Assembly (NCBI RefSeq): GCF_003334405.1
Contig: NZ_QOWM01000006.1
Direction: 5' to 3' (one strand)
Origin: Escherichia coli
GTDB lineage: Bacteria; Pseudomonadota; Gammaproteobacteria; Enterobacterales; Enterobacteriaceae
DNA length: 64,000 bases
The position numbers and the translations under genes were made by a program. How positions within the stretch are numbered: the stretch's first letter is position 1; each line of letters starts with the position of its first letter. Below the pieces are notes generated by a model that was not told the origin of the DNA, did not search any database, and saw only the letters and a program-made list of their open reading frames with translations. This document shows positions 33,742-34,330 of the stretch, one piece after another.

Positions 33742-34131
33742 ATGAAAAAGCTGCAAATTGCGGTAGGTATTATTCGCAACGAGAACAATGAAATCTTTAT
33801 AACGCGTCGCGCAGCAGATGCGCACATGGCGAATAAACTGGAGTTTCCCGGCGGTAAAATTGAAATGGGTGAAACGCCGGAACAGGCGGTGGTGCGTGAA
33901 CTTCAGGAAGAAGTCGGGATTACCCCCCAACATTTTTCGCTATTTGAAAAACTGGAATATGAATTCCCGGACAGGCATATAACACTGTGGTTTTGGCTGG
34001 TCGAACGCTGGGAAGGGGAGCCGTGGGGTAAAGAAGGGCAACCCGGTGAGTGGATGTCGCTGGTCGGTCTTAATGCCGATGATTTTCCGCCAGCCAATGA
34101 ACCGGTAATTGCGAAGCTTAAACGTCTGTAG
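33742..34131 (+). CDS. mutT: 8-oxo-dGTP diphosphatase MutT (Nudix), 129 aa
   Basis: 129-aa ORF with Nudix box GGKIEMGETPEQAVVRELQEEVGI. Confidence 0.96.
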   Translation: MKKLQIAVGIIRNENNEIFITRRAADAHMANKLEFPGGKIEMGETPEQAVVRELQEEVGITPQHFSLFEKLEYEFPDRHITLWFWLVERWEGEPWGKEGQPGEWMSLVGLNADDFPPANEPVIAKLKRL

Positions 34132-34212
34132 GTCAGATAAGGCGTTTTCGCCGCATCCGACATTCGCACACGATGCCTGATGCGACGCTGGCGCGTCTTA
34201 TCAGGCCTAAAG
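34129..34212. repeat. REP/BIME element, copy 1
   Basis: gtaggtcagataaggcgttttcgccgcatccgacattcgcacacgatgcctgatgcgacgctggcgcgtcttatcaggcc: canonical REP palindromic units (GCCGCATCCG / CTTATCAGGCC). Confidence 0.85.
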
Positions 34213-34244
34213 GGATTTCTAACTCATTGATAAATTTGTTTTTG

Positions 34245-34330
34245 TAGGTCGGATAAGGCGTTCACGCCGCATCCGACATTTGCACAAGATGCCTGATGCG
34301 ACGCTGTCCGCGTCTTATCAGGCCTACGTG
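34245..34330. repeat. REP/BIME element, copy 2
   Basis: gtaggtcggataaggcgttcacgccgcatccgacatttgcacaagatgcctgatgcgacgctgtccgcgtcttatcaggcctacg: near-duplicate of copy 1. Confidence 0.85.

Follow-up and report, generated by a model that had tools for sequence, protein, structure and literature searches.

Repetitive extragenic palindromes (REPs) and bacterial interspersed mosaic elements (BIMEs), the variation of their copy number among strains and their targeting by the insertion sequence (IS) IS621 have been described for decades. BIME-1 (also known as RIP or RIB) joins a z1 and a y REP, inverted tail-to-tail, through an L linker of ~35 nt that frequently holds the consensus sequence for integration host factor (IHF), and is found in single copy between convergent genes. 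BIME-2, for example REP325 between yjdM and yjdN, from which naRNA1-6 originate, combines y and z2 REPs with a short linker in tandem copies of strain-variable number, an L-type linker being a trait of BIME-1 (PMC3333891); Bachellier and Ton-Hoang have in addition described a class of 'atypical' BIMEs. The transposase TnpAREP/RAYT recognises the tetranucleotide GTAG and a bubble in the REP stem, and can cleave and recombine BIMEs (PMC3333891). IS621, a member of the IS110 family with a bridge-RNA recombinase, naturally targets ATCAGGCCTAC, an 11-nt site whose core is CT (PMC11208160). Here we analyzed a 64,000-nt stretch of Escherichia coli DNA (contig NZ_QOWM01000006.1, hereafter the window), a piece of K-12-like chromosome corresponding to approximately 77,303-141,302 of MG1655, which carries REPs at two sites, between mutT and yacG and between cueO and gcd.

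The best explanation, to which we assign a probability of about 0.93, is that both sites belong to the E. coli REP/BIME family, the mutT-yacG site being a two-copy BIME-2-like or atypical array and the cueO-gcd site a single BIME-1, with their mode of working read by analogy with other REPs. No evidence opposes this identity, and the weak points are the function and the exact class. Elements of this kind were known before; the finding itself stands and is an ordinary one. Both loci are identical to those of MG1655, where the annotation of NC_000913.3 gives coding sequence and ncRNA features only, with no repeat_region entry at either locus, and among the papers searched we found none that treats mutT, yacG and REPs together.

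Anatomy of the two REP sites

Three published consensus sequences (y, z1 and z2; PMC11208160) were used to scan both strands of the 64 kb, ungapped and at a minimum of 70% identity. The scan retrieved 6 matches, all at mutT-yacG or cueO-gcd and one of them the palindromic reverse reading of the cueO-gcd y REP, compared with 0.02 on average, and never more than 1, in 100 dinucleotide shuffles of the window. The fourth mutT-yacG REP (34291-34327) escapes an ungapped scan because of a 1-nt loop insertion and was found by repeat, motif and Rfam searches, giving a total of six REPs in the window, four at mutT-yacG, two at cueO-gcd and none elsewhere. When the tail motif CTTATCMGGCCTAC was sought with up to 2 mismatches, 6 of its 7 occurrences in the window fell at the two REP sites. 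The features of the mutT-yacG site, with its flanking genes, are as follows.

34128-34161, minus strand: REP 1, y type; the minus strand reads GTCGGATGCGGCGAAAACGCCTTATCTGACCTAC; 30/34 to the y consensus; stem-loop with a 2-nt bubble, -11.7 kcal/mol
34162-34174, unstranded: head-to-head S-type linker of module 1, 13 nt, ATTCGCACACGAT; an unpaired spacer in the naRNA4 alignment
34175-34210, plus strand: REP 2, z2 type; 35/36 to the z2 consensus; -21.4 kcal/mol
34211-34243, unstranded: tail-to-tail L-like linker, 33 nt; IHF consensus TATCAATGAGTTA at 34220-34232 on the minus strand
34244-34277, minus strand: REP 3, y type; 31/34 to the y consensus; -17.4 kcal/mol (plus strand) and -19.2 kcal/mol (minus strand)
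34278-34290, unstranded: head-to-head linker of module 2, 13 nt, ATTTGCACAAGAT
34291-34327, plus strand: REP 4, z2 type with a 1-nt loop insertion; -21.3 kcal/mol; exact IS621 target ATCAGGCCTAC at 34317-34327
34330-34343, unstranded: probable z-type half-REP remnant, GCGGCATCAGACA; complementary to TGCCTGATGC in the z2 REPs
33742-34131, plus strand: mutT, converging with yacG
34347-34544, minus strand: yacG, stop codon at 34347-34349

An earlier note on this DNA had described two tandem, near-identical REP units between mutT and yacG, at 34129-34212 and 34245-34330. A repeat search agrees with these boundaries within 1-3 nt, and recovered direct copies of 64 nt at 34127-34190 and 34243-34306 (92% identity, 116 nt apart), exact 18-nt copies at 34192-34209 and 34309-34326, and inverted repeats inside each direct copy. 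The copies are indeed tandem and nearly identical, but each is an inverted pair of a y and a z2 REP rather than a single unit, so that the site contains four REPs. It is built of two 116-nt modules, each running from an inverted y REP through a 13-nt head-to-head linker to a z2 REP and on into a 33-nt tail-to-tail linker. The tail of REP 2 is degenerate, with CCTAA for CCTAC and without GTAG on the complementary strand, and carries ATCAGGCCTAA, one mismatch from the IS621 target; the same z2 position reads CCTACGTGG in strains with three or five modules, which points to the K-12 copy as the degenerate one. Between REP 4 and the stop codon of yacG, 10 nt (34333-34342) form an inverted repeat of 90% identity with the z2 heads, and the sequence of 34330-34343 is probably the leftover of half a z-type REP. 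Mechanically called open reading frames (ORFs) of 44, 67 and 81 aa cross the REPs at 34262-34541 and are spurious. The locus tags of MG1655 skip from b0099 (mutT) to b0101 (yacG), which would fit an ORF that was annotated over the repeats early on and later withdrawn.

The corresponding features between cueO and gcd are these.

61396-61424, plus strand: z1 REP; 29/29 to the z1 consensus; exact IS621 target ATCAGGCCTAC at 61414-61424
61425-61459, unstranded: tail-to-tail L linker, 35 nt; IHF consensus AATCAATGGATTG at 61435-61447 on the minus strand
61460-61493, minus strand: y REP; 32/34 to the y consensus; -17.3 and -15.1 kcal/mol
61345-61375, unstranded: GC-rich hairpin ATGCCCGGA-TCTC-TCCGGGCAT, just after cueO and outside the BIME; -16 kcal/mol
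end at 61330, plus strand: cueO, converging with gcd
stop codon at 61532-61534, minus strand: gcd

The two REPs placed here by the earlier note (61396-61425 and 61460-61500) correspond to the z1 and the y REP, and its gene names were correct at both sites, where the flanking genes are convergent. Its treatment of the sites as two clusters of like units holds in so far as REPs are present at both; the two are not equivalent, however, the elements between cueO and gcd being single REPs. Their layout, with z1 on the plus strand, a 35-nt linker containing the IHF consensus and an inverted y on the minus strand, is that of BIME-1, and the sequence identifies the site as a canonical BIME-1 with no detectable difference from the class: its y REP has 2 substitutions relative to the consensus, and its IHF binding is predicted only. 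A supplementary table that accompanies a 2026 preprint gives the hairpin at 61345-61375 as a bidirectional terminator for gcd:cueO. On the minus strand, 61417-61459, which takes in the linker, matched Rfam ES036/CssrF below threshold (30.9 bits, with a gathering score of 37.6), suggesting that this Rfam family is itself modelled on the L linker of BIME-1 plus a REP tail.

Several shared properties carry the assignment of the six elements to the REP family. On the comparison with the REP consensus that the earlier note had named as its own test, all six match y, z1 or z2, at 88-100% over 29-37 nt (in order of position 30/34, 35/36, 31/34, a z2 with one indel, 29/29 and 32/34). The tetranucleotide GTAG/CTAC stands at the foot of the stem in five of the six, the exception being REP 2 (34175-34210), which ends in CCTAA, while an internal GC/TT two-base bubble, a requirement described in PMC3333891, is present in all six predicted folds. 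Folded singly, the REPs form stems with a 2-nt bubble at -11.7 to -21.4 kcal/mol at mutT-yacG, with z-scores of -2.9 to -6.8 over all six, and stem-loop potential is present on both strands at both sites. Queries containing these REPs match a median of 17-38 places per genome. Both sites lie outside genes at convergent 3' ends, the only overlap being that of REP 1 with the stop codon of mutT. The IHF consensus occurs in both tail-to-tail linkers at equal spacing from the flanking REPs, with only 5 such matches in the 64-kb window, and the two linkers align through an ATTGA core and a T-run abutting GTAGG (the TTTTGTAGG end).

The tandem pairs of y and z2, the short head-to-head S linker and the strain-variable copy number (1-5 modules in related genomes) give mutT-yacG the layout of BIME-2, although K-12 has two copies here compared with six at REP325 and one of the z2 REPs lacks its CTAC tail. 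The site may further depart from BIME-2, where the flanking tail-to-tail motifs are of type s, l or r and not L, in its 33-nt tail-to-tail linker, which resembles the L motif of BIME-1: its TATCAATGAGTTA is a perfect match to the IHF consensus WATCAANNNNTTR, and in a comparison with L motifs it proved to have the same IHF core and TTTT-GTAGG end. This linker points to the class of Bachellier and Ton-Hoang, and tandem y-z2 pairs combined with an L-like linker are, provisionally, best called BIME-2-like or an 'atypical' (chimeric) BIME.

Copy number and IS621 insertion among E. coli genomes

We surveyed 5,426 complete E. coli genomes for variation at both loci. Counted between the two gene starts, mutT-yacG spans 803 nt in K-12-like strains and ~687 nt, that is, one module fewer, in many strains, including O157:H7, UTI89 and ST131. 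The two-module junction was present in 1,868 of the 5,426 genomes. E. coli SWYHX138.261ft has three modules and Escherichia sp. E1V33 has five; in both, the modules follow one another at exactly 115-116 nt, the linker is the same and every module scores as naRNA4. Copy number was taken from record spans of 257, 374 and 490 bp; the 1,987 genomes retrieved with a five-module query at a coverage of at least 80% do not represent a copy-number count, as pieces of a tandem query are reused. The array grows and shrinks by whole 116-nt modules.

An interval of K-12-like or larger size between cueO and gcd was found in 2,741 of the genomes, the BIME being missing in roughly half. In the common 256-bp allele the BIME is wholly absent and only the cueO hairpin is left, a 287-bp allele retains the right flank only, and a 466-bp allele has gained a second y REP; the hairpin at 61345-61375 is kept in all alleles examined, those without a BIME included. 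The BIME at cueO-gcd is dispensable. The earlier note had expected copy number at such sites to vary among strains and had regarded them as hot spots for IS insertion, and both expectations are borne out: there are 1, 2, 3 or 5 modules at mutT-yacG, the cueO-gcd BIME is present, absent or extended, and IS621 is inserted at ATCAGGCCTAC at both loci in natural isolates.

These insertions lie at the CT core of the exact 11-nt target held by REP 4 and by the z1 REP. At mutT-yacG, where the insertion point is ATCAGGCCT^AC, the junction between the right end of IS621 and yacG was detected in 181 genomes, including O26:H11 11368, and in strain S19-651 IS621 directly follows ...ATCAGGCCT, with AC next to its right end. 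At cueO-gcd the point of insertion is CCT^AC of the z1 REP, and a rank bracket places the number of genomes at roughly 190-380; the bracket derives from a longer query, since a 90-nt junction query is confounded by IS621 copies in other BIME-1 loci. The right-end junction at this locus reads ...AGTATCT followed immediately by ACGCTAGC in strain CEA224S and others. The window itself is free of IS621. The CCTAC tails of the z REPs thus serve IS621, by way of its bridge RNA, as insertion sites.

Other rearrangements were also encountered at the two loci. Between cueO and gcd of E. coli CEA224S (locus 544-2895), an IS3-family element abuts a 5'-truncated IS621, with loss of the left end of IS621 and of the z1 REP, which amounts to a nested insertion and deletion at a BIME-1. 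In the laboratory strain E. coli DTU-1 (NZ_CP026612.1, locus 395-1166), IS1A interrupts the coding sequence of mutT and spares the REP region; a mutator phenotype would be expected of this strain.

Allelic variation extends to the end of mutT itself. Its stop codon TAG (34129-34131) lies within the GTAG (34128-34131, plus strand) of the first y REP, whose stem begins directly after it. O157:H7 and UTI89 have GTAT in place of GTAG, and reading continues for three codons to a TAA within the GGATAAGG of the REP. MutT is accordingly 129 aa long and ends in ...KRL in K-12 and S19-651, and 132 aa long in O157:H7 (...KRVYVG) and UTI89 (...KRVYAG).

Possible roles and competing explanations

Reports on other REPs offer a guide to what these elements may do. 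In 3' untranslated regions (3'UTRs), REPs act as terminators and stabilisers, and convergent gene pairs show higher expression when they bear REPs (bioRxiv 10.64898/2026.03.23.713779). Some BIME-2 elements, but not all, are cut by gyrase, mostly within y REPs (PMC6379681). IHF binds L linkers, and BIME-1, the class of the cueO-gcd site, has been linked to IHF and not to gyrase. By analogy, both transcripts of each convergent pair would run into the REP site, where each REP would fold as a stable stem-loop at the mRNA 3' end, block 3'-5' exonucleases and partly halt read-through into the opposing gene. On the DNA, the L linkers are putative IHF sites and the y-z2 pairs candidate gyrase sites.

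Some observations weigh against this interpretation. In the same preprint, REP effects differ from case to case and with context, and mRNA half-life is not generally affected (bioRxiv 10.64898/2026.03.23.713779); the supplements of the Topo-Seq paper that were searched contain no mutT, yacG or cueO entry. Around half of E. coli genomes are without the cueO-gcd BIME and most have one mutT-yacG module; because the elements are missing or reduced in so many strains, any role would be non-essential and modulatory at most. As for class, the 'atypical' assignment of the mutT-yacG array is provisional, as it depends on the comparison of one linker with L motifs.

Could the hairpins instead be ordinary Rho-independent terminators that resemble REPs by chance? 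They are GC-rich stem-loops at convergent 3' ends, as such a reading would have it. However, a terminator scan of 34132-34346 found no hairpin followed by a T-run between mutT and yacG, and none of the REP hairpins is followed by a T-run on the transcribed strand, the exception being the T-run of the L-like linker, which precedes a y REP. The 88-100% agreement with the REP consensus over 29-37 nt, compared with 0.02 chance matches, and the recurrence of the same sequences a median of 17-38 times per genome make this reading barely credible. Chance palindromes and intrinsic terminators are ruled out by the consensus match and the copy-number data.

A second reading takes the two mutT-yacG modules to be small RNA genes of the naRNA4 type, whose RNAs would bind HU, bridge DNA cruciforms and condense the chromosome, a function originally reported in PMC4550694. 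Both modules score above the gathering score of Rfam RF02564 (59.5 bits), over the full model and on the strand that is transcribed from mutT:

34131-34207, plus strand: module 1 (y, S linker and z2), RF02564 naRNA4 match, 77.8 bits, model positions 1-77
34247-34324, plus strand: module 2, RF02564 naRNA4 match, 78.4 bits, model positions 1-77

The model is nevertheless generic. REP325 supplied the y-z2 modules from which the naRNA4 family was derived (PMC4550694), so that a match means a y-z2 pair and not an independent small RNA gene; any y-S-z2 pair scores, the opposite strand also reaches 52-53 bits, and cueO-gcd obtained 34.8 bits only, through its y half alone. A scan found no promoter-like site near the matching modules, and in most strains there is a single or degenerate module. 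In addition, the condensing role is now disputed: a 2026 preprint with the original senior author among its co-authors reports that REP325/naRNA4 causes no measurable nucleoid compaction and that REP-REP contacts were undetected. We consider dedicated naRNA4-type genes very improbable here.

The third alternative, that the modules are primarily selfish, non-autonomous REP doublets of the REPIN type, spread by a single-copy RAYT/TnpAREP transposase and without host function at these loci, fares better, but we still regard it as unlikely. GTAG in five of the six REPs and the stem bubble required by TnpAREP in all six are in keeping with it, as are the presence/absence and copy-number polymorphism, the clean empty site at cueO-gcd and change in whole modules. 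On the other hand, exact tandem steps of 116 nt are equally explained by unequal recombination or slippage, the window contains no RAYT gene and no excision or insertion event was directly observed, and the 3' ends of convergent genes are the position that a host-function model predicts. This alternative moreover concerns the origin of the elements rather than their identity, and is compatible with their assignment to the REP/BIME family, which we retain.

Within that assignment, the position of the first REP may have a consequence of its own for mutT. According to Liang et al. (2015), as relayed in PMC12306157, ribosomes stall and expression falls where fewer than 16 nt separate a REP from a stop codon. 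With the first REP at the stop codon of mutT, this rule predicts some down-regulation of MutT; it is inapplicable to yacG, cueO and gcd, where the distances from stop codon to REP are 19, 65 and 38 nt, respectively. A bolder proposal is that the array acts as a lineage-specific dial on the C-terminus of MutT (129 or 132 aa) and, via stalling at the stop codon, on its level, shifting the rate of A:T to C:G mutation, or else that a gyrase-binding y-z2 array beside yacG, a gyrase inhibitor gene, couples supercoiling to yacG expression; we hold this to be a long shot.

Other features of the window and implications

Relative to NC_000913.3 the window shows 8 substitutions and one 1-bp deletion, as follows.

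1939, 16273, 38886, 40288, 42785, 48890, 48949 and 50383: single-base substitutions
56978: a T-run 1 bp shorter than in NC_000913.3, in the acnB-yacL intergenic spacer

Repeats of other kinds occur within two genes. A 96-nt tandem repeat (52338-52578; 2.5 copies, 88% identity) lies in yacH (DUF3300), on the minus strand, and implies protein repeats of 32 residues. In aceF, a 303-nt tandem repeat (48414-49231; 2.7 copies, 80% identity) reflects the E2 subunit's three lipoyl domains. Rfam searches also returned three matches away from the REP sites. RF02797, 'PssrA, plasmid-encoded Shigella sRNA A', matched at 27922-28011 on the plus strand (105 bits), from the last part of ftsA into the ftsA-ftsZ spacer; the match is chromosomal, which is odd for a plasmid-encoded family, and lies on the strand opposite to the antisense RNA StfZ annotated in MG1655. 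STnc40 matched at 33658-33727 on the plus strand (84 bits), over the last secA codons and the hairpin of the secA terminator; it lies 15 nt upstream of the start codon of mutT and is probably a 3'UTR-derived fragment and not a separate gene. The tp2 match at 45599-45712 on the minus strand (103 bits) is antisense to the transcript of the pdh operon and falls in the spacer between pdhR and aceE.

What this analysis adds to the long-standing description of REPs is a finer anatomy of the two sites, counts of their polymorphism, the generic nature of naRNA4 matches and a mutT stop codon that is encoded by a REP. In practice, the spans should be masked as repeats and not taken for small RNA genes, the naRNA4 matches being generic y-z2 pairs. 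Both loci are natural examples of target sites for the bridge RNA of IS621, and the REP allele determines where mutT ends and how long MutT is.

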